Source: Coriobacteriales bacterium (GTDB taxonomy: Bacteria > Actinomycetota > Coriobacteriia > Coriobacteriales > UMGS124). Taken from it: DNA of 64,000 nt. The position numbers and the translations under genes are program-made. Below, in pieces: positions 10,605 to 38,184 of this stretch. Under the pieces are notes generated by a model, which was not told the DNA's origin, did not search any database, and worked only from the letters and a program-made list of their open reading frames with translations. Numbering within the stretch: position 1 is the first letter of the stretch; each line of letters begins with the position of its first letter. Where the stretch lies: the NCBI GenBank assembly GCA_017515595.1, contig JAFWFL010000080.1, positions 1,200 to 65,199 of the forward strand. The letters are read 5' to 3'.

Positions 10605-11173
10605 TACTTATCACCTCCGGTAGATGCGGTCGAAAGTACCTGGCGTGCATGAGCGAGCTGGGTTTTTACGCTTGCGTCCATGCGCTTGCCGTGTACGTTC
10701 ATAATGATGCCTCCCAGGATCGACTTGTCGACCGTCTCATTGAGACGAACCGAGTGACCCAGGTCAGCCTGAAGTTTCTTACAGATGACGTCGCGCAAAT
10801 GATCATCGAGTTCTACCGCCGTGGTGACGTCAACAACCACGGTATCAAGGGCCTTCTCAGCCTCGAGCTCATAGTTAGATGCAACACGGCCGAGGAGCTT
10901 AAGGTCTCCGCGCTCGGCCATAACGCATGCTACACTCACAACCTCGGGAGAAATATCCTTGAATGCATCCTTAATGAATGCCTTCTTGTTCTCGGCAGGG
11001 ACACCGGTGTCCTCGAGGAACTCGCGCACCTGGACAGACTTGAGTATAGACGTGCGTACCTTTTTGATATTGTCAATATCATCAAATACGCGGTCTGCGC
11101 TCTTCGCAGCCTCGAGGAGGCATGCGGTGTAGGTTGCCACCTGTTGTTTGACCAGTGTGCGATTAGTTGGCAT
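10604..11173 (-). CDS. atpH: F1 ATP synthase delta (OSCP) subunit
   Basis: 189 aa, positioned between atpF and atpA. Its start overlaps the atpF stop by 11 nt. The C-terminal ..[21 protein letters not shown] matches the delta signature. Confidence 0.88.
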
Positions 11174-11777
11174 TGAGGGTACCTGCTTCCGCTATGTACT
11201 TCTCAATCAACTTGCGCTGGTTCTCATCAGAGAGATCTTCGCCAATGAGACGTCCTGCTACTGAGACTGAGAGGTCTGCAACTGACTTTTGGAGATCTGC
11301 CACTGCAGCAATCTTCTCTTTCTCGATAGTCTTTTTAGCCTTCGCGATCATCTCGTCTGCCTGAACCTGAGCCTGTGCAGTAATGTCTGCCTTTACCTGC
11401 TCACCGGCATGACGAGCCTCATCAACGATGCCCGCTGCTTCGCGGCGTGCATCTGCGATCTGCTGCTTGTACTCCTCAAGAACACGCTGAGCCTCGATCT
11501 TGGCAGCTTCTGCCTCGTCGAGATTGTTCTTGATGGTCTCCTGACGCTTGTCAAGAATACCTACAAACATAGGCCAAGCGAACTTGGCGAGAAGATACCA
11601 GATGATGGCGAACGCAATGAGTGCTGGGATGAACTCCGCTGGCTTAGGTATAAGAATGCTCATACCCGGGCCCGACTCAGCAGCTTCCTCGGCCCATGCG
11701 AGAGCCGGAGTTGCGACAACTGCAGCCGAGGCAAGAAGTGCCGCTGCCTTGGGGCTGACGCCGTTGCGAATGCTCAT
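11163..11777 (-). CDS. atpF: Fo ATP synthase b subunit with a 38-aa signal-peptide-like N-terminal extension
   Basis: 204 aa. Long charged coiled-coil C-terminal part and a single TM (FIPALIAFAIIWYLLAKFAWP). The extra N-terminus is MSIRNGVSPKAAALLASAAVVATPALAWA. A strong SD GGAGGTG sits 5 nt before the ATG at 11777. Confidence 0.88.
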   Translation of the reverse strand: MSIRNGVSPKAAALLASAAVVATPALAWAEEAAESGPGMSILIPKPAEFIPALIAFAIIWYLLAKFAWPMFVGILDKRQETIKNNLDEAEAAKIEAQRVLEEYKQQIADARREAAGIVDEARHAGEQVKADITAQAQVQADEMIAKAKKTIEKEKIAAVADLQKSVADLSVSVAGRLIGEDLSDENQRKLIEKYIAEAGTLNAN

Positions 11778-11818
11778 TGAATCACCTCCATCGAAACTAG
11801 TAGTTTATCTTTTAGCTC

Positions 11819-15916: not shown

Positions 15917-17574
15917 GCCTGTTTGGCGTCATCAATAATATCTATAAGCTCCTGGCGTGAATGAATGCCAAGCTTACTATAGACATTTTTTATATGTGAC
16001 CGCACGGTATTGATTGATACACCCAAAAGGTCGGCCGTTTTCTCAAGGCTGTACCCGCGCGAGAAATACTGCGCTGTTTCGCTTTCGCGCGCGGTGAGAG
16101 CATAGGTTTTTGCGACGTAATCCAGGGCGTCTTCGAATGTGCGGCCTTCAGGGAGGGGGCCGTTGGGTTCGCTCGGGGTTTCTGCGGGTTTCTCGGCCTG
16201 TAAAGACAATGAATCGCCCGTTGTCTCTTGAACGGGGCTTGCGGCGCCGGCTTGCTTCATAAGCATGTTATTCAAAAGCACTATAACACCTATGAGCAGG
16301 ATAAATATTATGCCCATGCTCACATATGAGGTTACCATTGAGGAATCAAACAATGCCTCGCGCAAGATTGCCGGAACGCCAATAAAGCGGGCAATACCTG
16401 AGATAGACTCGGGAATAAAGAGCATGAGACCCAACAATCTCGTAAGCCCAAACGGCATGTTTGGCGCCGAGAAAATCGCGAACAAGAACATGAGCAGCGT
16501 GAAACATACCCGCGCTGTGGTAATAAAGTCGCTCCCGAGAATACGCAGTTCTTCATCAGGCGAGAAGACCAAAAGAAACACTCCGGCAAAAAACAGTACC
16601 ACAAATACGGTCCAGTTCCAGAATATAACACGCTTGACCGGGAATTCCCGGACGAGGAGGATCACTGATATCAAAACCACCACAACATTAATGACGGTCA
16701 TCATTGTGGTATGCCAGGTAAGTCCCGTATTAACATACCAGGGATTTGTGACACCGCGGGCAACGTTACCGGTAAAACAAAAGAGCGCAAACAAGATCAT
16801 GAATGCAAACGGAATACCCGCTGATGCGAGCGATTGTGAAAGCGAAGGGATGGGTTTTTGCTCAGGGACTTCTATGCTCAGTCCACGTGACGGATGTGTA
16901 AGGAGAACCAAGCAACCAATGGTAAGCACAGGACAAAGCAAACGTATGATCCCTTGCAATACTATGGGCATCAACAGAACCGCATTGCTAAAAAAGCACA
17001 GGCCAAATGATAAAAACGCTGCGATTGCCGCCTTTTGTGCGGGCATCTCCATAAGCGCAGAGCCATACCACAAGACTGCCGCCATAAAATAAAGCGCGCT
17101 TAAAACCGCTCCTACTGATAAGACCGCTCCAAGGATTTCTTGCGGAACAGGAATCCAGAGCGCAAGCTCACTGATAATACCAATAACTGCAAGACACACA
17201 GCAAACACAAGAGACTCATGCCGGTGCATCCAATAAGCTATGCGCGGAGCAAGAAGCGCAACACATAAAGAAAAAAGCGCAAACGCTATGGCAAACGAGG
17301 TATAAGCAATTTGGGAGGTAGCGGTATCATACGCAAAAGAAGCAACCAAAAACGAGAGATGGTGAGCCCTGAAGTACGGCCAAAGCGGCGCCATACCCAA
17401 AGCAGGTAAAACAATATGCGCGAGTCCTTTGTCCGCAACGCCCACAAGCCTCTCCCTTGCTTTGCTGCCCACAAAATCATTTTTAAAATTGTAGCACGTC
17501 CAAGACCGTACATGACAACAAAACCGTAAGAGTTCCGTTTTATGCATGATGCGGTTCATATGAACGGAGAACAT
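15913..17574 (-). CDS. Polytopic-membrane LuxR-family transcriptional regulator
   Basis: About 10 or more hydrophobic segments followed by a C-terminal LuxR/FixJ HTH (TARESETAQYFSRGYSLEKTADLLGVSINTVRSHIKNVYSKLGIHSRQELIDII). The start codon is uncertain because no SD is seen at any of the first Met codons. Confidence 0.8.
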   Translation of the reverse strand: MFSVHMNRIMHKTELLRFCCHVRSWTCYNFKNDFVGSKARERLVGVADKGLAHIVLPALGMAPLWPYFRAHHLSFLVASFAYDTATSQIAYTSFAIAFALFSLCVALLAPRIAYWMHRHESLVFAVCLAVIGIISELALWIPVPQEILGAVLSVGAVLSALYFMAAVLWYGSALMEMPAQKAAIAAFLSFGLCFFSNAVLLMPIVLQGIIRLLCPVLTIGCLVLLTHPSRGLSIEVPEQKPIPSLSQSLASAGIPFAFMILFALFCFTGNVARGVTNPWYVNTGLTWHTTMMTVINVVVVLISVILLVREFPVKRVIFWNWTVFVVLFFAGVFLLVFSPDEELRILGSDFITTARVCFTLLMFLFAIFSAPNMPFGLTRLLGLMLFIPESISGIARFIGVPAILREALFDSSMVTSYVSMGIIFILLIGVIVLLNNMLMKQAGAASPVQETTGDSLSLQAEKPAETPSEPNGPLPEGRTFEDALDYVAKTYALTARESETAQYFSRGYSLEKTADLLGVSINTVRSHIKNVYSKLGIHSRQELIDIIDDAKQA

Positions 17575-17590
17575 AAGAGCTTGAATAGCA

Positions 17591-17620
17591 TTGACACTTA
17601 TATCTCGTTATCTCTAAGAT
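17591..17620 (+). promoter_or_regulatory. Candidate sigma70-type promoter for hicAB (TTGACA-N18-TAAGAT)
   Basis: TTGACA at 17591-17596 and TAAGAT at 17615-17620, about 100 nt upstream of hicA. The region is AT-rich, so chance matches are likely. Confidence 0.3.
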
Positions 17621-17640
17621 AATTCAAATACATTGTGAGT

Positions 17641-17697
17641 TATATATTAATTCGCTTAATATTAAATCTATTTAATACTTAAGTAGATTAATATATA
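17641..17697. promoter_or_regulatory. AT-rich nested palindrome upstream of hicA (candidate TA autoregulation operator)
   Basis: TATATATTAAT (17641-17651) is the exact reverse complement of ATTAATATATA (17687-17697). An inner ATTAAAT/ATTTAAT pair lies between them. Confidence 0.35.
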
Positions 17698-17716
17698 CAT
17701 ACCGAAAGGAAACACA

Positions 17717-17893
17717 TTGACAAAGCAAAGAATGCTGATCAAAGAACTCATAGATGCCGGATTTAAGTACATTAAAACAAACGGAGGACATGATAAGTAC
17801 CGAAAAGATAAGATAACAATTGCAATTCCTCATCATAGAGAAATAAGTGACCAGATGGCAGACATCATTAGAAAAGAAGCAGGTTTAAAATAA
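17717..17893 (+). CDS. hicA: HicA-family mRNA interferase toxin
   Basis: 58-aa ORF, below the track cutoff: (M)TKQRMLIKELIDAGFKYIKTNGGHDKYRKDKITIAIPHHREISDQMADIIRKEAGLK. It matches the HicA/YcfA pattern (G-G/S-H, PHH, C-terminal ..AGL). The TTG start at 17717 lies 4 nt after GAAAGGAAA; an alternative ATG is at 17732. Confidence 0.8.
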   Translation: MTKQRMLIKELIDAGFKYIKTNGGHDKYRKDKITIAIPHHREISDQMADIIRKEAGLK

Positions 17894-17935
17894 TCCAATT
17901 CTACTTTTTATTCTTATCATACGATCGGAGCAAAA

Positions 17936-18385
17936 ATGATTTTTATTCGAGAATTTGAATTATTCGAGAATGAAGGTATGACACTAGCAATTCCTCATGA
18001 TATGCCAGGTGGTACAGAGGGCTATAATTTTCAGGATGCAATCGAAATGGCCGCGGACTGGCTTAGGATGATGGCGGAGGATGCTCTTATACGTGGAGTT
18101 GATCTTCCCGGTGGAAATCTGGGTCAAGAACCGGAACATGGCGGTAAAATGGTTATCATTGCCATCCAGGCTGATCTAAAAAACGTCCCATCAATAACTG
18201 CGCTCGAAGCTGCTCAAAAACTTGGCATATCTCAAGCCCGTGTAAAACAGCTTTGCGATTCCGGACTTCTTGAGTCATGGAAAATTGGCAGAACGCGTAT
18301 GGTCTCACTCGATTCTGTCAATGCTCGTCTTGCAGAGCAGCCAAAAGCCGGACGCCCAAAACAAACTGAAGTAGTTTCTGCATAA
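17936..18385 (+). CDS. hicB: HicB-family antitoxin with a C-terminal HTH DNA-binding domain
   Basis: 149 aa, 42 nt downstream of hicA. HicB-like N-terminal part (..EGMTLAIPHDMPGGTEGYNFQDAIEMAADWL..). C-terminal HTH ITALEAAQKLGISQARVKQLCDSGLL. SD GGAG. Confidence 0.78.
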   Translation: MIFIREFELFENEGMTLAIPHDMPGGTEGYNFQDAIEMAADWLRMMAEDALIRGVDLPGGNLGQEPEHGGKMVIIAIQADLKNVPSITALEAAQKLGISQARVKQLCDSGLLESWKIGRTRMVSLDSVNARLAEQPKAGRPKQTEVVSA

Positions 18386-18478
18386 ACCCAAAATATTCAA
18401 CAACCATAATCAACAAACATAAATAACTGAAATATGGTGAATTACGTAGCTCATAAAACGGAAAAGAAACAAAATGGT

Positions 18479-19033
18479 TTATTGTTTTTCATCATCTGAA
18501 ATCATCCATCGTTTTGGTGTTTTGATTTGATGAAAGCGAATCGAGGGTCTTGTAAGTCTTATGTCGGTAAACCCCTGAATTGTATCAACCACATCACTAT
18601 TGCAAGAATCATTAAGAAGTATTAATGATAAAGCACCAGTTGGACACGCTTCGACACAAGCCGGTATTTCTCCTCTATCCTGACGGGTTGCGCACATGTT
18701 GCAACGGGTTACTTTATTGGTAGAAGCATTGTATTGCGGAGCATGGTAGGGGCAAGCTGTCACACACCTACGGCAACCATTACATAGACTCGAATTTATT
18801 TCAACAATCCCGTCATGTCTCTTATTAAATGCCCGCTCGGGACATACTCGGAAACACTCCGGATTTTCGCAGTGATTACATGCCATCGAGAGAAAAACTC
18901 CCTCTTCGATCTCAATTACGTGACGCCAGTGAATATGAGAAGGAGTTAGGTTTTCATTACGGCACGCCATTTCGCATGCCCGGCATCCAATACAAAGGCT
19001 GACATCAACAAGAAAAGCCTTCGGGTTGTTCAT
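18479..19033 (-). CDS. 4x[4Fe-4S] ferredoxin-type subunit (DmsB/PsrB-like) of the Tat-less molybdoenzyme
   Basis: 184 aa with four Cys clusters: CIGCRACEMAC, CNHCENPECFRVCP, CNGCRRCVTACP and CNMC..ACVEACP. Its start overlaps the upstream catalytic-subunit gene by 29 nt. Confidence 0.88.
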   Translation of the reverse strand: MNNPKAFLVDVSLCIGCRACEMACRNENLTPSHIHWRHVIEIEEGVFLSMACNHCENPECFRVCPERAFNKRHDGIVEINSSLCNGCRRCVTACPYHAPQYNASTNKVTRCNMCATRQDRGEIPACVEACPTGALSLILLNDSCNSDVVDTIQGFTDIRLTRPSIRFHQIKTPKRWMISDDEKQ

Positions 19034-21014
19034 ATGGGCTCACCTTTCTGATGCGGACCTTGCAATCAAAAAACGGGCAACTCTCTGCTGAAGGAAATGA
19101 CCCTCCAAAAAGATTGTTTACACAGAACCGATCGCTCTGTTCAACATAGACAACATTATTGGGAAGTTTTGCATTAACACAAGCCTCAGAAAGCATCGAT
19201 CCTCTTGCAGAGCACACCTCAATGGTATCTCCATTACGAATCTCTTGATTTGAGGCAATATGTGAGGATATCTCAGCGGTTGGCATCTTCTTTTGCATGG
19301 GATTAAGCCAGGTGAGAGTCTCATATTGAGAGTGAAATTTCAAAAGAGACTGAGGTGTAAGTAAATAATAAGGATAATCACAAACTGACAGACTGATTTC
19401 TGAATGTAAGTCAGATAATAAAGAACTATCAAAACAATATCTCCAGGTATCCGGGAGAGGTTCTTTGATTTTCTTAAATGACTGTTTGCGCAAATCATCA
19501 ATAGAGTTAAAACCGTACTCATCCTCCATCTGAGGAATAAAAAACTTGCATATCCAGTCAAGTGCGTTCATTTCTGATGGAAATGCCGAGAAACCCGGTT
19601 TGATTCGGTTTATATAGCTTGATAGTTCTCGGGCAATTTGCAGATCACTCTTTGATTCATAAAATGACGGAAGAGTTTTTTCATTCAAGGTAAGCCAATT
19701 ATGCCAAAAACTGACAATCAGATCTTCTTCCTCAAAAAAGGACGCTGCCGGCAACACAATGTCTGCTTGGCGGGCTGTTTTTGTGAGATACAAATCAACA
19801 CACACAACTAGCTCCAGCTGGCTAAATAAGTCATACCAAGCAGCTAAGTCAAAACCCTGTGAAAGAGGGTTGGCACAAGAAACCCAAAGCATTTTGAGAG
19901 GAGGATCCTGCAGGCCAAGAGCTTCTTGAGGAAAGGTATTTATATTAACAAATCTTCCCTCGCCATCAGTGCTGTGAGGTTTGCAGTACTCTATCATAAA
20001 CTCAGCAGGATCAGTGTAAGCTTTATTGTAAAAGTACAGACCTCCACCGGCAGTATAATAACTCCCTGTTAACGCAATCAATGCACTGATTGCGTTAACC
20101 GCTTTTCCAGCGCCACGATACCGTTGCATCCCAAACCCTGTCAGACATGCTATCGCGTTATGCTCCAAGAACAATTTACATAAACAATCAAAAGCTTCCG
20201 TTGAGAGTCCTGTATGAGAAAGTACCTCATCTATTAAAAGCCTATCGAGCTCCCGGGCAAATTCAGCGTAACCACATGTGTGTTCCTTTATAAAGCCTTC
20301 ATCTATGTGTTTTACTTCAACGAGCCGTTTGGCAATACCCAATGCCAGCCATTCATCAGAATGAGGCTCGATTTGAAAATAGTAATCTGCTCTCTTTGCT
20401 GTATTGGTAAAAACCGGATCTATAACAACAAGAGGAACGCTTTTGTCTTTACGGGCTTTGTAAATAATACGCATCAGATTGATATTTGTAGATGTAGGAT
20501 TTCCTCCCCAAATAACAATAAGATTAGCTTTATGCATGTCTTCAGGATCAGGGTGAGGAAAACTTCCCATGGTCTTCTCGAGCACATGTATTCCGGTGTC
20601 GGCGCATATGTTTCCTGTCAAATTGGTACACGATCCCAAACCGGCAAACATACCTTCAACAGCATGGTGAAGAAGGCCAATGTTTCCCGTTCCTTTATAG
20701 TATCCAATGGCTTTATTGGACCCAAAGGTTTTGTTGAGCTCAATTATCTTTAATGAAATAATATCATAAGCCTGGTCCCAGGAAATACGCCGCCATTCCC
20801 CTGATCCGCGGCGCAGTTGTTTGAGTGGATATCTTAAACGATAATCATCAAGTGTATATTGAATAAGTGAATAGCCTTTTGCACAAAGACTCCCTTGGGT
20901 ATAGCCATGCTTTGAATCGCCAATTACTCTTATTAGTCTTTCACCTTTTACATTGGAAAACATTGCGCATGATCCGTAGCAGTGACGCGGACAGGCATTG
21001 CGAAATTGAGTCAT
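19005..21014 (-). CDS. Molybdopterin (bis-MGD) oxidoreductase catalytic subunit, no Tat leader (predicted cytoplasmic), substrate unknown
   Basis: 669 aa from ATG 21014 (MTQFRNACPRHCYGSCAM..GSLCAKGY = C-x3-C-x3-C..C FS0 cluster motif). Overall layout is that of COG0243-type molybdopterin oxidoreductases (..VIWGGNPTSTN.., ..VVIDPVFTNTAKRAD..). No RR motif is present in any upstream in-frame extension. Confidence 0.85.
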   Translation of the reverse strand: MTQFRNACPRHCYGSCAMFSNVKGERLIRVIGDSKHGYTQGSLCAKGYSLIQYTLDDYRLRYPLKQLRRGSGEWRRISWDQAYDIISLKIIELNKTFGSNKAIGYYKGTGNIGLLHHAVEGMFAGLGSCTNLTGNICADTGIHVLEKTMGSFPHPDPEDMHKANLIVIWGGNPTSTNINLMRIIYKARKDKSVPLVVIDPVFTNTAKRADYYFQIEPHSDEWLALGIAKRLVEVKHIDEGFIKEHTCGYAEFARELDRLLIDEVLSHTGLSTEAFDCLCKLFLEHNAIACLTGFGMQRYRGAGKAVNAISALIALTGSYYTAGGGLYFYNKAYTDPAEFMIEYCKPHSTDGEGRFVNINTFPQEALGLQDPPLKMLWVSCANPLSQGFDLAAWYDLFSQLELVVCVDLYLTKTARQADIVLPAASFFEEEDLIVSFWHNWLTLNEKTLPSFYESKSDLQIARELSSYINRIKPGFSAFPSEMNALDWICKFFIPQMEDEYGFNSIDDLRKQSFKKIKEPLPDTWRYCFDSSLLSDLHSEISLSVCDYPYYLLTPQSLLKFHSQYETLTWLNPMQKKMPTAEISSHIASNQEIRNGDTIEVCSARGSMLSEACVNAKLPNNVVYVEQSDRFCVNNLFGGSFPSAESCPFFDCKVRIRKVSPYEQPEGFSC

Positions 21015-21151
21015 ACGGCAATACCCCCTCAATCAGACAACAGCGTGGGCTTCAACTCATCCCGCCTGCATTTTTAGCTGGCACCAACAAAAATAATACG
21101 TAATTATACTTGAAGTATTGTTTAGTTTTGAACCCAGCATCTTACAAAAGA

Positions 21152-22408
21152 TTATATAGTTTTATCGATGATATGCAAGCGCTTAATCTTAAACACAGCA
21201 ACAAGATTTAAACGCGTCTCCATGTCATTAAGAGAGCAATCCAGAATAGACTCTATTTTTGAAAGCTTGTATCGCAGGGTATTTCGGTGCAAAAAAGTAA
21301 TCTGTGCGGTCTCGTTTACACTAAAACCGCATTCTACAAAGCTTTCGAGAATACTTAGAAGATCCTCCTTTTCGTCTTCATACTCAAGAAGCGGCCCAAG
21401 AATTTGATGAAAGTACCCTCGTAGATCTTCAAGATCGTGTTTAAACAGAATACAGTCAAGACCCATTTCATTGAAAAACGAAATTTTTTCTCCCTTTAAG
21501 GTGCCAATCTCAAGAGCAATTTTCGCTTCTTGGAAGCTACGGAAAAGATCTACGGGCTCCTGATATGGCTGTCCTACACCACATGCGAGAGACGATATGC
21601 CGTTGTTCTCGTCAAATGATTTGAGAATATCCTCAAAGAGGCCAATTACTTCTCGTTTTTGATCAGATTTGCAGTTTCCTTTTGTTTCAATTACTGCTGT
21701 TATCATATTCCTGCTGATAGTTGTCCCCGTACTTGTCCCCCATTTTGAAGCGAGAACCCTGTCAACAGTAGTCTTAAGTATCTCTGCTGAATAGGAGTTT
21801 TGCAGAGTAGTAGAATAATCATAGGTACTGACCACCAGAACAAGATGCGGATGGTGAAACTCCCAGCCCCATATTTTGCCCATAGAAATAATATCGCTAT
21901 TGCTTTTTATGTTGCCAAATAACAGGTCATAGAAAAAGGCTTCTTTTAGTCTGCGGTTTTCTTGTTTGATACTTACTCGATTTTTGATGTGTGTCACATA
22001 AAGTGATAACGCCACTTCTATTGAGTCGTTAAACCTAGTGGGGATAGAACTATCTTCATCGCACAGAACGAGACAATATCCAAGCACTTGCTCATTCTGG
22101 GTTATAGTCCATCCGAATGAGCGGTATTGATTTTCTGTTCCCACTAAAACGCATGAAAAGGTGTATTCGTTCTCATTAACAGGCTTGCGCTGTATAATAC
22201 GATAGCCATTAGTTCCGAGGTTGTCCGGCGATGCAGCAACCACCTCTCCGTCAGCAGCCAAAACAACAACGGGACTATTTATCATAAGAGACAGGGCATC
22301 TGTAAGGGCACTGACATTCCGACCGGATGCTATAATCAATTGTTTAATGGTAACCTGCGATGCAGCATTATCATTGTCTGATTTCATGCTCTCACCTGTA
22401 ATTCTCAA
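21152..22408 (-). CDS. PucR/CdaR-family transcriptional regulator
   Basis: 418 aa. The C-terminal HTH ..NETAQITFLHRNTLRYKLSKIESIL is the PucR C-terminal HTH signature. The alternative start ATG 22387 (MKSDNDN) follows GGTGAG. Confidence 0.82.
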   Translation of the reverse strand: MRITGESMKSDNDNAASQVTIKQLIIASGRNVSALTDALSLMINSPVVVLAADGEVVAASPDNLGTNGYRIIQRKPVNENEYTFSCVLVGTENQYRSFGWTITQNEQVLGYCLVLCDEDSSIPTRFNDSIEVALSLYVTHIKNRVSIKQENRRLKEAFFYDLLFGNIKSNSDIISMGKIWGWEFHHPHLVLVVSTYDYSTTLQNSYSAEILKTTVDRVLASKWGTSTGTTISRNMITAVIETKGNCKSDQKREVIGLFEDILKSFDENNGISSLACGVGQPYQEPVDLFRSFQEAKIALEIGTLKGEKISFFNEMGLDCILFKHDLEDLRGYFHQILGPLLEYEDEKEDLLSILESFVECGFSVNETAQITFLHRNTLRYKLSKIESILDCSLNDMETRLNLVAVFKIKRLHIIDKTI

Positions 22409-22416
22409 AGACAGGG

Positions 22417-23109
22417 TTATTGCCAGGCATTATCCAACTCAAGAATAATATCAGCATAGTTTTTAAGGAACCGGGCAACAGCAAGAGCGGCTTGCGGATA
22501 GAGCAGGCATGGCATTGCGGTTTGGATAGCATTTGCGAAACTATCAATCCATACAAGCAGGTGCTTGTTTAAAAAATGCTGTTGGCTAAGCAGGCTTTTC
22601 TTGGCGTTTTCCATATCTCCCTGCTCGTAATATGAAAAAGCAGAGGCGGCCAGGTGTGCCATAAAATCTAACTCAAGAGCAAGATGATCATCTGCTTCAT
22701 GCGGATAATTACTCGGAACATAGCCATGCTGTTTATACAGCCTGCGCACATCAAATGTGCAAGACTGGAAAAGCATACGCTCATCAGTTGCAAAAACTGA
22801 TTCCCAAGGCGGGGCCGGAAGTTTTGATGGCCCAACTAAAAGATGCGTGTATTCGCTTAACAAACTGTCAAGCAAGCTGTCGTGATCTGCCAATCTTTTT
22901 GATGTAATATCCTCAAAAGCATTAAGAAGTATTTGCAGGTTTTCATCATTTTCATTGAATACCATGCCAAGTACGCTGAATGTATACTTATCAGCAAACA
23001 CATCAAGCATGGCATCATCTGGCTCGCTTCCAAAAATTCGATGAAAAAGCTGGTAGCTGTAATGGCACGCAGCCAGTATAACGGCAATGCTATCGTCTTG
23101 TGTAGCCAT
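22417..23109 (-). CDS. TorD/DmsD-family redox-enzyme maturation chaperone (module 1)
   Basis: LLVGPSKLPAPPWESVF..YPHEADDHLALELDFMAHLA is the TorD/DmsD signature. The start is set at ATG 23109 by alignment with the paralog at 37504. The track start at 23127 is a TTG. Confidence 0.85.
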   Translation of the reverse strand: MATQDDSIAVILAACHYSYQLFHRIFGSEPDDAMLDVFADKYTFSVLGMVFNENDENLQILLNAFEDITSKRLADHDSLLDSLLSEYTHLLVGPSKLPAPPWESVFATDERMLFQSCTFDVRRLYKQHGYVPSNYPHEADDHLALELDFMAHLAASAFSYYEQGDMENAKKSLLSQQHFLNKHLLVWIDSFANAIQTAMPCLLYPQAALAVARFLKNYADIILELDNAWQ

Positions 23110-23133
23110 GAATAAAACCGCCTTCAATGTCCC

Positions 23134-23163
23134 GAACCCCTTCCGTCAAACCGGAAGGGGTTC
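23134..23163 (-). other. 12-bp GC-rich hairpin between the Fe-S subunit gene and the chaperone gene (module 1)
   Basis: GAACCCCTTCCG (23134-23145) and CGGAAGGGGTTC (23152-23163) are exact complements with a 6-nt loop. There is no U-tract on the coding strand. Confidence 0.7.
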
Positions 23164-23223
23164 AGAGGTTATTTCTGATGAATGTATATTATCATGCATT
23201 CACTCTGATTACAGACATATATT

Positions 23224-23802
23224 CTAAACTTGTTTTTCTCTGAAATCCGGTAATTCAGCGCATGCTTTGCAGGAAATCAGAAGAGAAGGCTCTGTCATGC
23301 CTGCTGATGGCAGAATGGGGAGTTCACTCACAACGTCATCACCATGCTTCGCTCTGAGCTCATCTAAATCTCCAAATTCAAGAGCCCTCATTGGACATGC
23401 GTCAACACATGCCGGATTCCATCCATTATCGCGAAGCTGTTTGCAGCTGTCGCACTTTTGAACTATGCCCAGAGACTCAATATACTGCGGAACTGAATAA
23501 GGACAAGCTTGGATGCATGACAGGCAGCCAATGCATAGTTCATCATCGTGTTGTACGGTTCCATCTTCAGCAACAAACATGGCTCCAACAGGACATACGG
23601 GAACACATGCCGGATTTGCACAGTGGTTGCAAGTTCCCGAATAGTGATATGCTTTGGTTTGAGGGAATACTCCAACTTCAAAGGTTCGAACATTCCGGAA
23701 AAGAACTCCTATTTCAAGATTATTCTTATCCTTACAAGCAACTTGGCAGGCACGGCATCCGGTGCAGATGGTTTGATCAAAATAGAATCCCAGGGTACCC
23801 AT
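23224..23802 (-). CDS. DmsB-like 4x[4Fe-4S] electron-transfer subunit (module 1)
   Basis: 192 aa with CTGCRACQVAC, CNHCANPACVPVCP, CIGCLSCIQACP and CDSC..ACVDACP. Its ATG overlaps the stop of the A subunit (TAATG). Confidence 0.9.
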   Translation of the reverse strand: MGTLGFYFDQTICTGCRACQVACKDKNNLEIGVLFRNVRTFEVGVFPQTKAYHYSGTCNHCANPACVPVCPVGAMFVAEDGTVQHDDELCIGCLSCIQACPYSVPQYIESLGIVQKCDSCKQLRDNGWNPACVDACPMRALEFGDLDELRAKHGDDVVSELPILPSAGMTEPSLLISCKACAELPDFREKQV

Positions 23803-26510
23803 TACTCGTCATCTCCTTCCACAACAGCGATTCTCTGAGGACGTTCGACATCGGGGAGAAGGGGTTCTCCTGCGTACTTCTCAAACGTTACAATATTCGA
23901 ATTGAAAGCCTCAACACCTTGACCCTGAAGCAGTGCACTTGTCAGAATATTGTCTGCACCGCCCCTGTCGATGCCGGTTTCGGGATCAGGATCTACCCAA
24001 GAACCATGAGGGAGGCTAACAATACCAGGCATAAGCCTCTCGGTAACAACAGCCCTACGCAACGTCTTGCCATTCATGTTCTCGATAAGAACGGTATCGC
24101 CGTCTTCAATTCCCTTTTCGCGAGCATCTGATGCATTGAGATATACAGGGTTCGGAAATGCCTCACGCAGCTGAAGTACGTTGTCAAAACCGCTATGGGC
24201 ACGACGCAGGTAATGCGGGTTGATAATTTGATATGGGTATGCACCTTTCTCTTTGGTTTCCCAATTTTCAAAGGTACATTCATAGCCATTCTTAGGAGGT
24301 ACGTAAGTAGGCAAGGGTTTAATCTCACTCCAGCCTGCTGCATTGATTCGCTCGGCAAGCCCGGTCGAGTAGATCTCGATCTTTCCGCTGGCTGAAGAAG
24401 GCAGAGGATGAGCTTCAGGATCATTACGGAATGCTTCGAAAGCAATATAGCCATAGTTGTCACCGGGGCTACGCTTTACCTGATAGTATCCCGTCTTCAA
24501 GAATTCTTCGAGAGAAATCTTGCCTTCTTGCGGAGTACCCTCAACACCCCATGATTCAATATCTTCTTCAGTGATCGTAATGAGAGGACCATAGTCAACG
24601 CCATTGTCCTGGATTACTGTACAGCTCTTAAGCTCATTAAAGAATTGCTGCTTGGGTCCAAACGGATACACGCTGTCAACGTCAACTCCCAACCGCTTAC
24701 ACAACTCAATATCAATCTCTTGATCAGTTTTTGCTTCAAAGAGAGGCGGCACAACGTTGCGGTAAGCAATAACAACTTCGCGGTTGGGGAAGGAGTTTCT
24801 GGGGAAACCACCAATGGTTTCCCATTCAGTGGTTGTAGGAAGAACAAGGTCAGAGAACATCGCGCTGGTTGAGAGTGTGTAATCCTGTGTGACTACAAAC
24901 TCGACCTGTCTAACTGCTTCGATACCGCTGTTCATATCTTCAGCGGTCTGAAGCTTGTTCATATACTTATAGAAATAAATCATTTCGATATCGATATCTC
25001 GCTCTTCCCTCGGAAGATAGAGACTCTTCCCACAGAAATTATATTTGTGGGTAAGGATTGCATTCCATACCTCGCCCAGATGGATAGCATCATCAACCGG
25101 GTTTGATATTGTAGGAAGTCCGGCTGATCCGGGATTGACCAGCGAGAGACCGCCATTTGCGGTAAAATAGCTGTGGCTTGGGCCTGTCATGTGTCCCGAC
25201 TTACCCATATGGCCGGTCATGGCACCAATTGTCGCAATCATCTGAGGAAGGTTATCGGAATTCTGCGTACGTGCGCTTGCCCAACCACAAACAATGGCAA
25301 CCTTTTTGTCAACACGCATCTCCTGGGCAAGATACCTAATGCGCTCAGGTTCAAGACCGCAGATCTCAGATGCCCATTCAGGTGTCTTAGGAATACCGTC
25401 ATAAGTACCAAGCACATAATCCTTAAAGTTCTCTTCAGGATTAACACCTTCAGGCATATGATCTGCATCAAAACCCAAAGTACAACGGTCAAGGAAGTCC
25501 CAATCAATAAGAGGATTGTTTTCAGGATCATCTTCAGTGATCAGCGTATAGGCAACACCAAGGAGTAATGCCATATCGGTACCGGGGCGTACAGGCAACC
25601 AATCAGCGTCCATAGCTTGGGCAAGGTCATTGTAATAAGGATCAACAGCAATAAACTTGGCACCGGTTTTCTTTGCCTGAGCCCAATGATAATTATTAGT
25701 ACCGGCAGAATTCCATGCAGTATTGAGTGAAATCATAATGATGGTCTCACAATTACGCAGATCAAGCCTGTCGTTAATAGTATCGCGAGACGTGTATGAA
25801 GCCGCCCATTGAATATAGCCGGGGCGGTCAAAGACAGGATAGCTATAAGGCATATAGCCCATTAAAAACGGAGTAACCTGCCAAGAACCATATGAAGTAG
25901 AACCATAGTGAGACACGGCTCCACCATAAGAATTAATAGCGTTACAAGGTCCACCAAATGAAAGGATAGAACGGTTTCCGTACTTCTCGACAACGCGTTT
26001 AATCTCGCTGGACAGGATATCAAAAGCCTCATCCCATGAAATACGCACCCATTCATCCCTGCCGCGCAGCGATTTGTCTCCGCCACCTGGCTCCCAATGC
26101 TTACGCTTCATAGGGTACTTAAGACGGTCAGCTCCAAACACATTCTTGCGCTGGGAACGGCCGCGAATACAACCGCGTTGCTGAGGATAATCTGGTGAAT
26201 CCTCGTGAGTATCGTCTGTTTTCTGACGTACAACTTCGCCGTCTACAACTAATGCATAGTTAGCGCACTGACTACCACAATTGAACCAGCAGGCTGCGGG
26301 AATCCATTCTCCCTTATCACTCACAGCGATGTCCACGGAAGAATTGGTATCTTCTGCTTCAGTTTGTTCTGCACTCACCATATCTGCAAGTGCTAAACCA
26401 TTACCCATATGGCTTGTAAAGGCCAATCCAACGGCACCAACTGCAGCTGCATTCAGGAAGTCTCTCCGGTCAACCATTTTGCCGGCTGCTTGTTTAAGGA
26501 AATCTGACAT
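23802..26510 (-). CDS. Tat-exported DMSO-reductase-family molybdoenzyme, DmsA-like catalytic subunit (module 1)
   Basis: The start is set at ATG 26510, preceded by GGAGGAGTCA. Twin-arginine leader MSDFLKQAAGKMVDRRDFLNAAAVGAVGLAF. FS0 motif CWFNCGSQC..C. DmsA-like blocks DRLKYPMKRK, GTYDGIPKTPEWASEICG and SGKIEIYS. Confidence 0.9.
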   Translation of the reverse strand: MSDFLKQAAGKMVDRRDFLNAAAVGAVGLAFTSHMGNGLALADMVSAEQTEAEDTNSSVDIAVSDKGEWIPAACWFNCGSQCANYALVVDGEVVRQKTDDTHEDSPDYPQQRGCIRGRSQRKNVFGADRLKYPMKRKHWEPGGGDKSLRGRDEWVRISWDEAFDILSSEIKRVVEKYGNRSILSFGGPCNAINSYGGAVSHYGSTSYGSWQVTPFLMGYMPYSYPVFDRPGYIQWAASYTSRDTINDRLDLRNCETIIMISLNTAWNSAGTNNYHWAQAKKTGAKFIAVDPYYNDLAQAMDADWLPVRPGTDMALLLGVAYTLITEDDPENNPLIDWDFLDRCTLGFDADHMPEGVNPEENFKDYVLGTYDGIPKTPEWASEICGLEPERIRYLAQEMRVDKKVAIVCGWASARTQNSDNLPQMIATIGAMTGHMGKSGHMTGPSHSYFTANGGLSLVNPGSAGLPTISNPVDDAIHLGEVWNAILTHKYNFCGKSLYLPREERDIDIEMIYFYKYMNKLQTAEDMNSGIEAVRQVEFVVTQDYTLSTSAMFSDLVLPTTTEWETIGGFPRNSFPNREVVIAYRNVVPPLFEAKTDQEIDIELCKRLGVDVDSVYPFGPKQQFFNELKSCTVIQDNGVDYGPLITITEEDIESWGVEGTPQEGKISLEEFLKTGYYQVKRSPGDNYGYIAFEAFRNDPEAHPLPSSASGKIEIYSTGLAERINAAGWSEIKPLPTYVPPKNGYECTFENWETKEKGAYPYQIINPHYLRRAHSGFDNVLQLREAFPNPVYLNASDAREKGIEDGDTVLIENMNGKTLRRAVVTERLMPGIVSLPHGSWVDPDPETGIDRGGADNILTSALLQGQGVEAFNSNIVTFEKYAGEPLLPDVERPQRIAVVEGDDE

Positions 26511-26988
26511 TGACTCCTCCATCTTAATCAAACAACAAAAAATAGAAAGAGGCCAGATGATAAGTATCGTATTATGCGTTATTTTATGATTTGTTTAGGC
26601 TTTGGCGCCAAAAGCCCACTCTCTCATATGCAAAAACGAAATCCCTCATCTCTCCGATGTCATTTTAACACATCAATTATTCAAACCATATGTTTTAAAG
26701 CACACATTACGGTCCGTTTTTTGTGCACGGGTTACAGTACAAACGCATTCGTGTTGTCATGAATTAGGGAAATATCTGTGCGCAGGAACAATACTGAAGA
26801 GTCCGTTGCTCTTTTATGTTGTGTCCCATGATTTATGTGATCCATGTTTTACCTGCGGGTTTGTAAAATCATCAATGAGATGTGAGGACATTTTTGAGCG
26901 GGTAGGGCACACTTATGGGCAAGCCAGACGTCGTGAAGACATACGAATGGCGTTTATTCAAACTGTTCTCATGAAAGGGGAACTTAGC

Positions 26989-34034: not shown

Positions 34035-36701
34035 ATGTCGAAATACCTCGATAAGGCCGCAAGCCCGTCTCTTGACAGGCGCCAGTTCCTACAGGTTGCC
34101 GGAGCGGTAGGCGCGCTCGCAGCGACAGGGCTCGCGGGTATCGACAATTCGCTTGCTTTTGCAGACGAGAATGCCCCAAGCCAGGCAGACCTGGAAGAGG
34201 GCAAATGGGTGCCGTTTAACTGCACCACCATGACCTGCGCATACCGTTGCCTTAACCAGGCATACGTAGTTGACGGTGTGATTACGCGCCAGGGTACAGC
34301 TGACATTCATGAAGATACCGAGGACTTTCCGCAGTTCAGGCCCTGTGCAAAAGGCCTGAGCACGCGTCGCATTGTCACAAGCGCCGAGCGTCTTAAGTAC
34401 CCCATGAAGCGTAAGAACTGGAATCCCGGCGGCCAGGATTACCATCCTGAGCTGCGCGGTGTTGACGAGTGGGAGCGCATTAGCTGGGAAGAGGCTATAG
34501 ACCTGATCGCCGGCGAGTTCACCCGCATTAAGGATGCCTACGGCAACCGTTCATTCCTCTCGCTTGGCGAGCTTGAGCCACACCTTGTTGCAGGACTCAT
34601 TGGCAGCCCCATTCTCAATGCCATTGGCGGATGCCTTACCACCTGGGGCCAGGCCTCACAGGGCGGCTTCCCGGTAGTTGGCTATAAGATGCGCGGCGCC
34701 TGGTCAATGGGTGTTGCCGACTCGCAGGACCGCATTGGTCTCAGGCACTCCAAGCTCATTGTATTCTGGGGTACCAACCCCGCATGGTCCGCAAGCGGCG
34801 GAGACATGCATGCGTTCCTGAGCGCCAAGAAGGCCGGAGCCAAGATTATCTTTATTGACCCTTACTTCAACGAAACCGCAAAAACCGTTGCCGACGAGTG
34901 GATTCCCTGCCATGTTGGCACCGACGGCGCCCTTCTCGAAGCTCTCGCATACGAGATGATTGTCAATAACCTCCAGGATCAGGAATTCCTTGACAAATAC
35001 TGCCTTGGCTTTGACGCTGACCACATGCCCGAGGATGCTAAGACAGACGAGAACTTTAAGGATTACATCCTTGGCACCTATGACGGTATCCCCAAGACGG
35101 CAGAGCGTGCAAGCGAAATCTGCGGCACCCCTGTTGAGATGATCAAGAACCTTGCATACGAGATTGCCACTACCAAGCCCATGGCCTGGAAGTCTTCAGG
35201 CGCTCCAGCACGCACCTATTACGGCAACCGCTATGCACAGCTCTTCTTTACCGTTGGCTGGATGACCGGCAACGTTGGCAAAATTGGCAGCGAAGTTTCT
35301 GCTGGTGCATCCCAGCCCATGAGCCACCTGGGCACCCCCGGCGGTACCGGTATGGTTGCCTACGGCGCTTCCGGATACAAGTATCCGCCTAACCCCATTT
35401 GCACCGAGCCTCGCGGCGGTGGCTATTTCCAGGCTGGATACTACAATCCTGAGCAGGAATATGGTATTCCGTTTACTCAGACCTTTAAAGCAATTGTTGA
35501 CGGCAAGTATGCACTCCCCGGCCCCAACGGCCGCACACAGGAGTGCGACATCCGCTGTATTGTACGTGATGACTGCCACCAGCCGGCAAGCCAGCAGAGC
35601 GGTGGTTGGTATGTTCAGGATGCATTCCGCAAAGAAACCGTTGAGTTTGTACTGGTACAGGACCGCTATCTGGTAACCGACGCACAGTATGCTGACATTG
35701 TACTTCCTGTTACCACCTCTCTTGAGGATGACTACAGCCTGCCGTCACAGCAGGCATCCGAGCTCTGCCTCTTTGGTCAGAAGGTTATTGAGCCTTACTT
35801 TGAGTCCAAGAGCGACCCTGAAATCTTCTTTATGCTCTGCGATAAGCTTGGCATTGGAGAAGACATTGCCCCGCGTATGACCGTAAAGCAATCCCAGATG
35901 AACAAGGTCATGGGCGCCACCATTCTTTCTGAGGACGGCACTCGTGTACCGCTTGTCGCCATTACCCAGGAAGACCTTGACGCCGAGGGCGTAACCGGCG
36001 AACCGCATGACGGCCTGGTACCGTTTGCCGAGTTCAAGGCTAATGGCGGCTATCAGATTGAGCGCAAGGACGGCGACCACTTTATCAATATCTTCCACAA
36101 GGCATTTATTGATGATCCTGAGGCCAATCCTGTGAACACTGCTTCAGGCAAGTATGAGATTTATTGCCAGTCGCTTAAGGATTACTACGAGTGGTGCTGC
36201 TTCAATGACATTGACGCACTTCCTAAGTACAAGGCTGCTCCGCAAGGCGCTGAACAGGCACGCGAAGAAGCAGAGTATAAGTATCAGCTCATCACCCAGC
36301 ATACCATCCGTCATTCACACAGTTCGTTTGGCAATGTCAAACAGCTTGACGAGATGTATCCTATGGACTTTGTTATGAGCGCTTATGATGCCGGGAAGGC
36401 CGGCTTTAAGAAGGGCGACTGGGTACTGGTTACGAGCATGGAAGGCGGCCAGGTTGTGCGCCGTCTCAACGTGATTCCGCAGCTTATGCCCGGTACGGTA
36501 TTCCTGGGCCAGGGCAGCTGGCGTCAGATTGACCAGGCAACCGGCATTGACATGGGCGGAAACACCAACACGCTCTGCCGTAGCGAGCTTTTGGGTGACG
36601 CATATCAGTGCTATAACGGCAACCTTGTTAAGATTGAGCTTTACAACGGACCGACGCCTGAGCTTGACTACAAGCGTGCACCTATCGTAGCAGGACTGTA
36701 A
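34035..36701 (+). CDS. Tat-exported DMSO-reductase-family molybdoenzyme, DmsA-like catalytic subunit (module 2)
   Basis: The start is set at ATG 34035, after AAGGAGGGAG. Tat leader MSKYLDKAASPSLDRRQFLQVAGAVGALAATGLAG. FS0 motif CTTMTCAYRC..C. Blocks ERLKYPMKRKNW, GTYDGIPKTAERASEICG and SGKYEIYC are shared with module 1. Confidence 0.9.
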   Translation: MSKYLDKAASPSLDRRQFLQVAGAVGALAATGLAGIDNSLAFADENAPSQADLEEGKWVPFNCTTMTCAYRCLNQAYVVDGVITRQGTADIHEDTEDFPQFRPCAKGLSTRRIVTSAERLKYPMKRKNWNPGGQDYHPELRGVDEWERISWEEAIDLIAGEFTRIKDAYGNRSFLSLGELEPHLVAGLIGSPILNAIGGCLTTWGQASQGGFPVVGYKMRGAWSMGVADSQDRIGLRHSKLIVFWGTNPAWSASGGDMHAFLSAKKAGAKIIFIDPYFNETAKTVADEWIPCHVGTDGALLEALAYEMIVNNLQDQEFLDKYCLGFDADHMPEDAKTDENFKDYILGTYDGIPKTAERASEICGTPVEMIKNLAYEIATTKPMAWKSSGAPARTYYGNRYAQLFFTVGWMTGNVGKIGSEVSAGASQPMSHLGTPGGTGMVAYGASGYKYPPNPICTEPRGGGYFQAGYYNPEQEYGIPFTQTFKAIVDGKYALPGPNGRTQECDIRCIVRDDCHQPASQQSGGWYVQDAFRKETVEFVLVQDRYLVTDAQYADIVLPVTTSLEDDYSLPSQQASELCLFGQKVIEPYFESKSDPEIFFMLCDKLGIGEDIAPRMTVKQSQMNKVMGATILSEDGTRVPLVAITQEDLDAEGVTGEPHDGLVPFAEFKANGGYQIERKDGDHFINIFHKAFIDDPEANPVNTASGKYEIYCQSLKDYYEWCCFNDIDALPKYKAAPQGAEQAREEAEYKYQLITQHTIRHSHSSFGNVKQLDEMYPMDFVMSAYDAGKAGFKKGDWVLVTSMEGGQVVRRLNVIPQLMPGTVFLGQGSWRQIDQATGIDMGGNTNTLCRSELLGDAYQCYNGNLVKIELYNGPTPELDYKRAPIVAGL

Positions 36702-36732
36702 GCAGCCAACAAAAAAGATTGGAGGCCTGACA

Positions 36733-37371
36733 ATGGCTAAACAGCTTGGTTTTTATATCAATGCCGACAATTGCATAGGCTGCAAGGCGTGCGTTGCAGC
36801 CTGCAAGGATAAGAATGACCTGCCCCTCGGCGAAAAAATGCGCCGCGTATTTGAATACGCCGGTTGTGATTGGGATGTGTCTGAGACGGGCGCCTGCATG
36901 CCGTCAAACTTCTTTGCATACTCGATTTCTATCGCATGTAACCATTGCGCTGAGCCCGCCTGCGTGGCCAGCTGCCCGGTTGGCGCTATGACAAAGCGCG
37001 AAGAAGACGGTATTGTTTACGTTGACAAAGAGCTCTGCATTGGATGCGGAACTTGCGCACAGGTATGCCCATACGGCGCTCCGTACCTTGGTGTTGACGA
37101 TCTCTCATGCAAGTGCGACTTCTGCATGGATCTCATTGACGAGGGCAAAACGCCGTATTGTGTTGCCATTTGCCCCACTCGCTGCCTCGAATTTGGCGAC
37201 ATCGAGGAGCTTCGTGCCAAGTACGGCAACGTTGACGGTATCGAGCCTATTCCTATGAATACCGGTACCATGCCGTCACTCGTCATTGGCACCAACCGTC
37301 TGAACCCCGACGGTTCAATCCCCGGCACACTCATCACCACTGAGCAGGAACTTGTGAGCGAAGCGGTATAA
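36733..37371 (+). CDS. DmsB-like 4x[4Fe-4S] electron-transfer subunit (module 2)
   Basis: 212 aa with CIGCKACVAAC, CNHCAEPACVASCP, CIGCGTCAQVCP and CDFC..CVAICP. SD GGAGG. Confidence 0.9.
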   Translation: MAKQLGFYINADNCIGCKACVAACKDKNDLPLGEKMRRVFEYAGCDWDVSETGACMPSNFFAYSISIACNHCAEPACVASCPVGAMTKREEDGIVYVDKELCIGCGTCAQVCPYGAPYLGVDDLSCKCDFCMDLIDEGKTPYCVAICPTRCLEFGDIEELRAKYGNVDGIEPIPMNTGTMPSLVIGTNRLNPDGSIPGTLITTEQELVSEAV

Positions 37372-37383
37372 TGTAGTATTCAT

Positions 37384-37431
37384 TGACGGGGCAGCACATT
37401 CAGAAATGAGCTTTCTGGCACTGCCCCGTCA
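37384..37431 (+). other. Long GC-rich hairpin between the Fe-S subunit gene and the chaperone gene (module 2)
   Basis: TGACGGGGCAG (37384-37394) pairs with CTGCCCCGTCA (37421-37431). An inner CAGAAA/TTTCTG pair is present. There is no U-tract. Confidence 0.7.
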
Positions 37432-37503
37432 GTGTCTATAATACGCAATAGGCTGTATAATGGCATATATGCGGTTCGTAAGTAAAAAGGAGCAGGTAAG
37501 AAC

Positions 37504-38184
37504 ATGGGTCAGGGAGAAAATCAGGGCGTCTCGATTATCCTTGCTGCACGTACGGCAATTTATAATTTGCTGCACGCTATCTTTGGCGGCGATCCTCAAG
37601 AACGGGTTTTAGAAGCGCTCTCGGACGGTAGCCTTATGCAGCTTATCTCAGTATTCTGTGATGACGGAGACAGTCTGCAACTGTCTGCCCAGCACCTTGA
37701 AGAGCACACTCGGGCTCTTAAAACCTCAGATCCTGATATCCTTGACAAACTGAGCTCTGTCTACTGCAGACTTTTTGTGGGACCCGGCAAAGTAGAAGCT
37801 GAACCATGGGAATCTGTTTATAACGAAGGCGAGGCTATGCTTTTCCAAAAGTCGACGCTTGACGTGCGCAAAGCATATGTTGCACAGGGGTTTATTCCCA
37901 AGAGCTACCCCCATGTGGCAGATGACCACATTGCCCTCGAGCTTGATTTTATGAGACAACTTGCGAAACGCATGGAAGAGACTTTGGCTTCTGACAGCGG
38001 TGAGTATGAAGTTTTGCGACAGGCTTCAGCGAAATTCCTCTCTTCACATATGCTTAACTGGGTTCCTTTGTTCTATGCAAAAGTAGAATCAGCACGCGAA
38101 CAGTTAATATATCGTGAGGCAGCAGCTTTGCTTAATGAATTTTTAAAAATCGATCTCGAAGTATTGGACGAATTAGCCAAATAA
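37504..38184 (+). CDS. TorD/DmsD-family redox-enzyme maturation chaperone (module 2)
   Basis: 226 aa. LFVGPGKVEAEPWESVY..YPHVADDHIALELDFMRQLA. SD AAGGAG. Confidence 0.87.
   Translation: MGQGENQGVSIILAARTAIYNLLHAIFGGDPQERVLEALSDGSLMQLISVFCDDGDSLQLSAQHLEEHTRALKTSDPDILDKLSSVYCRLFVGPGKVEAEPWESVYNEGEAMLFQKSTLDVRKAYVAQGFIPKSYPHVADDHIALELDFMRQLAKRMEETLASDSGEYEVLRQASAKFLSSHMLNWVPLFYAKVESAREQLIYREAAALLNEFLKIDLEVLDELAK

Follow-up and report, generated by a model that had tools for sequence, protein, structure and literature searches.

The window analysed here, a stretch of 64,000 nucleotides (nt; 64 kb) of contig JAFWFL010000080.1 from a gut Coriobacteriales bacterium, harbours a three-gene set predicted to encode an exported reductase of the DmsAB type. 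This set, module 1, lies on the minus strand at 22417-26510 and comprises a catalytic subunit bearing a signal for twin-arginine translocation (Tat) (A), a four-cluster ferredoxin (B) and a chaperone (D). It lacks a gene for a membrane anchor of the DmsC/NrfD type, and the missing anchor is genuine, not an annotation gap. Since the nearest relatives of module 1 possess the same gene set plus dmsC, the missing dmsC is, as judged from this comparison, a derived loss. For the supply of electrons we tentatively give most weight to the docking of the AB pair on a DmsC/NrfD-type menaquinol-oxidising subunit encoded elsewhere.

The A subunit (23802..26510, minus strand, 902 amino acids (aa)) is a DmsA/YnfE-like bis(molybdopterin guanine dinucleotide) catalytic subunit with the Pfam domains Molybdop_Fe4S4, Molybdopterin and Molydop_binding. 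Its open reading frame (ORF) is open up to a TTG at 26531, and the likely start is the ATG at 26510, which was also picked by the gene callers on the metagenome contigs with an identical locus. The best-scoring NCBIfam subfamily was TIGR02166 (dmsA_ynfE) with 461.5 bits, yet the cut-off is 777.7 bits and A is not a curated member. Trimethylamine N-oxide and dimethyl sulfoxide reductases are the closest solved structures. In the alignment with E. coli DmsA, the FS0 cysteine motif CWFNCGSQC...C is kept and the serine column of the molybdenum ligand (YSSAQ) is conserved; we take the numbering of this column to be that of Ser-176 in the DmsA literature. The Tat signal peptide of A (26385..26510, minus strand) reads MSDFLKQAAGKMVDRRDFLNAAAVGAVGLAFTSHMGNGLALA and is followed by DM. 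It consists of the twin-arginine motif DRRDFL, a hydrophobic stretch and ALA/D (the slash marks the cleavage site), which is a type-I (AxA) site, and it has no lipobox cysteine.

The B subunit (23224..23802, minus strand, 192 aa, Pfam Fer4_11) is DmsB-like, and its start overlaps the stop of A as TAATG. It aligns over its full length with E. coli DmsB, with all four cysteine groups present, and scores 197 bits against NCBIfam DMSO_dmsB, slightly below the cut-off of 214. B has neither a signal peptide of its own nor a transmembrane segment; a C-terminal membrane helix as in FdnH was considered and ruled out by the transmembrane scan and the alignment. The third gene (22417..23109, minus strand, 230 aa) encodes a Tat proofreading chaperone of the TorD/DmsD family (Pfam Nitrate_red_del, PF02613, E = 3.5e-29), with weak matches to the NCBIfam TorD and DmsD models. 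Its ORF is open up to a TTG at 23127, and the metagenome gene call also gives 230 aa from the ATG. The Tat leader, the coupling of A and B through the overlap and the chaperone after B had all been read from the sequence in the preliminary description, and they were recovered here.

B and D are separated by a spacer of 96 nt with a perfect, GC-rich stem-loop of 15 bp (23131..23166, minus strand). The folding energy of the B-D stretch of 99 nt is -37.3 kcal/mol (z = -5.35 against shuffled sequences). A terminator after B was not called by the terminator scan. The strong hairpin has no T run after it. The stem-loop may be an element of mRNA stability or processing that sets the ratio of AB to chaperone.

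The search for an anchor covered the whole window. A hydropathy scan of all ORFs of at least 40 aa returned seven credible multi-helix ORFs, six of them identified by Pfam as ATP synthase subunit a, two membrane LuxR regulators, a CitMHS transporter, an AEC-family transporter and an acyltransferase. The remaining one, small and without Pfam match, adjoins atpB; an eighth (11289..11780) is antisense to an ATP-synthase gene and was not counted as credible. Every helix-predicted ORF of this size within 22417-26531 lies inside A, B or D or runs antisense to one of them, and the spacers are short, with the 96 nt between B and D and 9-30 nt between D and the PucR gene that follows. No DmsC/NrfD gene, stand-alone NrfD genes included, could be detected in the window by tblastn; the queries were E. 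coli DmsC, ten DmsC sequences of related loci, of which three came from Eggerthellaceae-related genome loci, and eight NrfD homologues, and the best E was 0.05. A DmsC profile of 11 sequences, run with filters off against six-frame segments of at least 25 aa, gave a best E of 0.71 and revealed no remnant of dmsC in the 64 kb. The haem-c motif CxxCH was found in no ORF of the window. Two metagenome contigs with an identical locus were gene-called independently, and the anchor is absent there also. The locus is found in ENA ERZ28018703 and SRA SRR12529301, and JAFYTB01 belongs to a related MAG (metagenome-assembled genome). The observation in the preliminary description that neither B nor any neighbouring ORF supplies transmembrane helices is borne out.

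The nearest relatives of A in a large protein collection show 53-65% identity and belong mostly to Firmicutes (57-65% for B). The named ones are Desulfitobacterium, Desulfosporosinus, Gracilibacter, Moorella, Symbiobacterium, Limnochorda, Sporomusa and Campylobacter. Paralogues from Eggerthellaceae genomes share only 35-47% identity with A. In the closest relatives (loci L035 and L038, 64-65% identity) the order is A-B-D-DmsC; the fourth gene overlaps the end of D and its product is a clear DmsC (E = 4e-40 to the DmsC of Desulfitobacterium dehalogenans). Desulfitobacterium dehalogenans itself (CP003348) possesses a divergent PucR gene (36% identity) followed by A-B-DmsC, and the Campylobacter neighbourhood reads A-B-DmsC-TorD.

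The genes next to module 1 belong to the same comparison. D is followed by a PucR-type regulator (21152..22387, minus strand, Pfam GGDEF_2 and HTH_30), and then by a cytoplasmic molybdoenzyme of 675 aa without Tat motif and its own four-cluster ferredoxin of 184 aa (18479..21032, minus strand, by Pfam); the preliminary description likewise gave PucR and the cytoplasmic molybdoenzyme as the next genes. PucR takes the place of the closest relative's dmsC. In L036, PucR and a cytoplasmic molybdoenzyme of 667 aa adjoin TorD-A-B-DmsC; a ferredoxin, a cytoplasmic molybdoenzyme and PucR adjoin A-B-DmsC in L043/44 and L059-61. The cytoplasmic molybdoenzyme of the window is 39% and its ferredoxin 52% identical to the L043 counterparts, and PucR shows 30-36% identity to the PucR of the relatives. 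The set of A, B, D, PucR and the cytoplasmic pair therefore matches the relatives gene by gene (30-65% identity), and dmsC alone is missing. Similar to the Firmicutes-type DmsABC clusters with PucR, the locus has a TorD-like chaperone, PucR and a cytoplasmic molybdoenzyme with ferredoxin; unlike them, it has PucR after D, whereas in those clusters B or D is directly followed by DmsC (PF04976).

A low-GC island (17400..26800) encompasses module 1, PucR and the cytoplasmic pair, along with an excisionase-like gene (HTH_17). According to the composition profile its GC content is about 0.34-0.49, against 0.50-0.58 in the flanks, and the excisionase-like gene (17936-18385) lies at one edge. A HicA toxin gene is found at the same edge in one metagenome variant (L026). 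The low-GC island, together with the Firmicutes-type contigs on which A, B, PucR and the cytoplasmic pair have their nearest relatives, suggests that the locus was acquired horizontally from a Firmicutes-like donor; dmsC would have been lost before or after this.

The module is maintained, since an orthologous locus of another Coriobacteriia genome (L001, a 5.4-kb contig) keeps the anchorless order A-B-D-PucR-cytA with low ratios of nonsynonymous to synonymous differences (pN/pS). Compared with the window, L001 shows saturation at synonymous sites (pS 0.81-0.87), against a pN of 0.10 (A), 0.18 (B) and 0.33 (D); after this saturation pN/pS is about 0.12 for A and 0.20 for B, which shows purifying selection on both genes. 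The ORFs of module 1 are all intact, A and B remain translationally coupled, and the identical locus recurs in independent metagenomes (the two contigs mentioned above). At the level of sequence, this argues for a working enzyme and not a remnant.

AtpD of the window is 91% identical to proteins of Coriobacteriia MAGs and 83% to Atopobiaceae proteins, and L001, the sole genome record that has an orthologous locus, bears the label Eggerthellaceae. By these two markers the host is a monoderm actinobacterium, as the preliminary description had assumed, with the family less certain than the class. With the anchor truly absent and the host monoderm, it is reasonable to place the electron partner elsewhere, as that description did. 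Its premise that such systems need a quinol-oxidising subunit encoded in the operon was too strong, given ArrAB with CymA (PMC2500031, PMC8076601), the reductases of Eggerthella and Gordonibacter (PMC4257093) and the frequency of anchorless loci among relatives.

In total, 80 metagenome loci related to A were collected, of which 58 could be judged; 57 of these fell into 41 clusters at 90% identity. DmsC is present in the operon in 26/41 and there is no anchor in 15/41 (37%). Adlercreutzia, Slackia and their relatives were represented by 14 genome loci with 17 A-B(-D) modules, of which at least 13 are anchorless over a range of about 10 kb. A DmsC gene comes after B or D in just two loci, and one module has an NrfD gene beside it. 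Anchorless modules directly adjoin anchored A-B-DmsC sets in Moorella thermoacetica L032, L049 and L074. The anchorless arrangement is thus a real yet fairly ordinary variant. As a separate observation, the first of these loci (CP136417, 1575006-1591579) carries TorD-A-B with a radical SAM gene and no anchor, directly upstream of a second A-B-DmsC, and a radical SAM gene also stands alongside the A/B modules of L021-L024, L034 and L036.

Similar to module 1, the modules of Adlercreutzia, Slackia and other Eggerthellaceae have the A-B-D layout without anchor. Unlike A of module 1 (A1), nearly all of the anchorless paralogues from Eggerthellaceae genomes have a Tat signal that ends in a lipobox (AAGC/AP, LAGC/AP, ISGC/AP), as seen in L002, L004, L009, L011-L016, L020-L024 and L027; these are predicted to be Tat-exported, lipid-tethered enzymes. 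A lipid tether on A was ruled out for the window, as neither A1 nor the A subunit of a second module (A2) possesses a lipobox. In the metagenome set, the link between lacking an anchor and having a lipobox seemed strong before de-replication (19 of 24 vs 11 of 29), but it was no longer significant afterwards (8/5 vs 10/14, Fisher p = 0.31). The lipobox pattern misclassified some cases, and no such association is claimed.

In Eggerthellaceae, a conserved operon combines a stand-alone gene of the NrfD family with genes for a GntR regulator and a Band_7/SPFH protein, with 45-96% identity over 70 clusters. It was located in L012 (8864-9736, minus strand), L020-L024 (gene 10001-10876), L027 (8001-10355) and L029/L030 (8001-10438). 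In Adlercreutzia the operon is divergent from one anchorless Tat-A/B module, with a second anchorless module a few kb off, and in L027, a more distant Eggerthellaceae MAG, it lies near a module with its own DmsC. The lineage therefore does have anchor genes that are not coupled to AB operons, and the NrfD-type product of this operon is a candidate for a shared quinol-oxidising subunit.

Compared with E. coli DmsABC and YnfFGH, module 1 shares the Tat-signal A with FS0 and the serine ligand, the signal-less four-cluster B and the DmsD/TorD chaperone. Unlike these systems, it has no C subunit and its host is monoderm; A is also about 90 residues longer than E. coli DmsA and scores below the dmsA_ynfE cut-off. 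The Shewanella arsenate reductase ArrAB likewise has no anchor gene in its operon and receives electrons from the separately encoded quinol dehydrogenase CymA (PMC2500031, PMC2762525). Arr operons occur as arrCAB or arrAB, and arrC is often missing, with CymA being used (PMC2500031, PMC8076601). Module 1 resembles ArrAB in combining an exported molybdenum subunit and a four-cluster ferredoxin in an operon without anchor gene. However, A is not ArrA (NF041714, 76 bits against a cut-off of 1600), there is no cytochrome c gene in the window, and the host lacks an outer membrane that would keep a soluble enzyme in.

Closer to the host, a survey of 2014 described reductases without membrane components in Gordonibacter and Eggerthella (PMC4257093). 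The E. lenta catechol dehydroxylases Dadh, Hcdh and Cadh possess a Tat signal, a 4Fe-4S partner and a co-localised membrane anchor, and mature Hcdh no longer contains the signal (PMC7028382). The Gordonibacter enzymes, including Dodh, have neither Tat signal nor anchor and are cytoplasmic AB enzymes (PMC7028382, PMC11574389). Module 1 is similar to the catechol dehydroxylases in being an enzyme of the DMSO reductase family from the same bacterial class. Compared by description only, its Tat signal without an anchor fits neither subtype.

As to the electron route, module 1 is predicted to be a working Tat-exported DmsAB-type reductase of S- or N-oxides, or of similar compounds. A Firmicutes-type dmsAB(D)C cluster with pucR would have entered a Coriobacteriia genome and would have been left without dmsC. 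As in other members of the family, the TorD/DmsD chaperone would hold the A precursor until cofactor insertion, the signal-less B would cross the membrane via Tat bound to A, and the signal peptide would be cleaved at ALA/D. From descent from a dmsC-bearing cluster and the loss of dmsC it would follow that electrons pass through a subunit encoded elsewhere. AB would dock through B on this trans-encoded DmsC/NrfD-type subunit and be supplied from menaquinol, the subunit being shared with, or borrowed from, one of many paralogous reductases. This reading is consistent with the retention of the Tat motif, FS0 and the serine column in A and of the four cluster motifs in B, and with the unchanged DmsB-type character of B. 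B has the same length as the B of the anchored relative L010 (192 aa) and aligns with it over the full length, so nothing points to an altered docking surface. The relatives' gene set includes dmsC, which points to a quinol-coupled ancestor. Anchorless modules are frequent beside anchored ones, and stand-alone NrfD genes occur in the family; in E. coli, YnfH can reportedly substitute for DmsC, a result of 2003 ascribed to Lubitz and Weiner.

Several points weigh on the other side. No anchor of any kind lies within the 64 kb, the partner is hypothetical for this host, and the stand-alone NrfD operon was found only in other genera. A docking signature in B was looked for and rejected, as anchorless B and adjacent anchored B are 56-62% identical and pairs of anchored B 54-75%. 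If docking were weak, then with no lipobox nothing would hold the enzyme at a monoderm membrane. The literature searched contained no experiment on the electron supply to an anchorless module, and nothing specific on Eggerthella together with DmsC, NrfD or a quinol dehydrogenase.

The main competitor, doubtful though with a real chance of being right, is a soluble extracytoplasmic AB enzyme in the wall zone, reduced by a shared multihaem cytochrome c of the NapC/NirT/CymA type or by another carrier, as Shewanella ArrAB is by CymA. The signal of A, with its cleavage site and no lipobox, agrees with a soluble enzyme. A common electron hub would also fit the four Tat substrates of the window (A1, A2 and two flavoprotein reductases), 0/4 of which are accompanied in the window by a membrane partner or a cytochrome. 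In E. lenta, the partner of Cgr2 is the membrane cytochrome Cgr1. However, no ORF of the window carries CxxCH, the window data give no sign of a c-type cytochrome in the host, B is of the DmsB type whose relatives dock on DmsC, and a 120-kDa complex of a monoderm cell would be at risk of escaping into the medium. It is improbable that module 1 serves outside respiration altogether, as an exported detoxifying or repair reductase, or as a dehydrogenase working in reverse, exchanging electrons with a small carrier, soluble or extracellular, and having no need of a quinol-oxidising subunit. The score of A below the DmsA/YnfE cut-off (461 vs 778 bits) does not assign a substrate, and the conserved pairing with the cytoplasmic molybdoenzyme and PucR hints at a specific catabolic pathway and not general respiration; yet dmsC in the relatives' gene set points to quinol coupling in the ancestor, and the transmembrane and motif scans found no candidate carrier gene in the locus.

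Decay of the module is more improbable still. A remnant in which dmsC was deleted after horizontal transfer and the other genes no longer function would agree with the low-GC island, the excisionase-like gene at its edge and the lack of the anchor seen in the closest relatives. Against it stand the intact ORFs and preserved coupling, the anchorless order kept in L001 at the low pN/pS of A and B, and the identical locus in independent metagenomes. The least probable reading, with hardly any weight, is that an anchor lies unrecognised in the locus, as a small or novel membrane protein or as a gene lost by misassembly. Hydropathy and profile scans can overlook unusual proteins, but here the helix-predicted ORFs all coincide with A, B and D, the spacers are short, the profile and tblastn searches were without match, and the gene order is identical in two independent assemblies.

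Anchorless exported AB reductases are already known and have precedents, and a missing anchor is by itself common. What distinguishes module 1 is the apparently clean, derived loss of dmsC after horizontal transfer, without the lipid tether of its anchorless cousins. Gut Coriobacteriia possess tens of secreted molybdenum and flavin reductases for dietary, host and drug molecules, and the wider question is how these arsenals are wired to the quinone pool. A survey of the reductase arsenals (bioRxiv 10.1101/2022.12.26.521950) is silent on anchors and on the link to the quinone pool. A broader and unlikely proposal is that many of the exported reductases of Coriobacteriia are interchangeable AB cartridges on a few stand-alone quinol-oxidising subunits, such as an NrfD-GntR-Band_7 hub, and that this socket in the host let the acquired DmsAB shed dmsC. 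A shared membrane subunit, if present, would place many reductase activities under control at a single point and would explain how newly transferred reductase cartridges function at once.

The window contains a second set of Tat-A, B and TorD-like genes, module 2 (34035..38184, plus strand), for which Pfam, NCBIfam and the transmembrane scan revealed no anchor. Its A subunit (34035..36701) has a signal that ends AFA/D, with no lipobox. A membrane LuxR regulator with 10 helices (38200-39654, minus strand) lies after module 2 on the opposite strand; membrane LuxR-type regulators are typical beside the catechol dehydroxylases of Eggerthella and Gordonibacter. The relatives of module 2 in L007 and L008 (39-40% identity) begin LuxR-TorD-A; L008 goes on with B-DmsC, and L007 stops inside A.

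Two Tat-signal FAD_binding_2 flavoprotein reductases, similar to fumarate or urocanate reductases, are encoded at 26875-28545 (plus strand) and 54085-55677 (minus strand), both with no cytochrome or membrane partner nearby, and the question of electron input applies to them as well. The first adjoins a gene for a 423-aa protein (28647-29918, minus strand) that has no Pfam match and an N-terminus resembling a signal peptide. The exported DmsAB(C), PucR and the cytoplasmic molybdoenzyme of about 670 aa co-occur in distant bacteria (L036, L043/44 and L059-61), with the ferredoxin of the molybdoenzyme also present except in L036. This recurring set hints at a single pathway that has one step outside and one inside.

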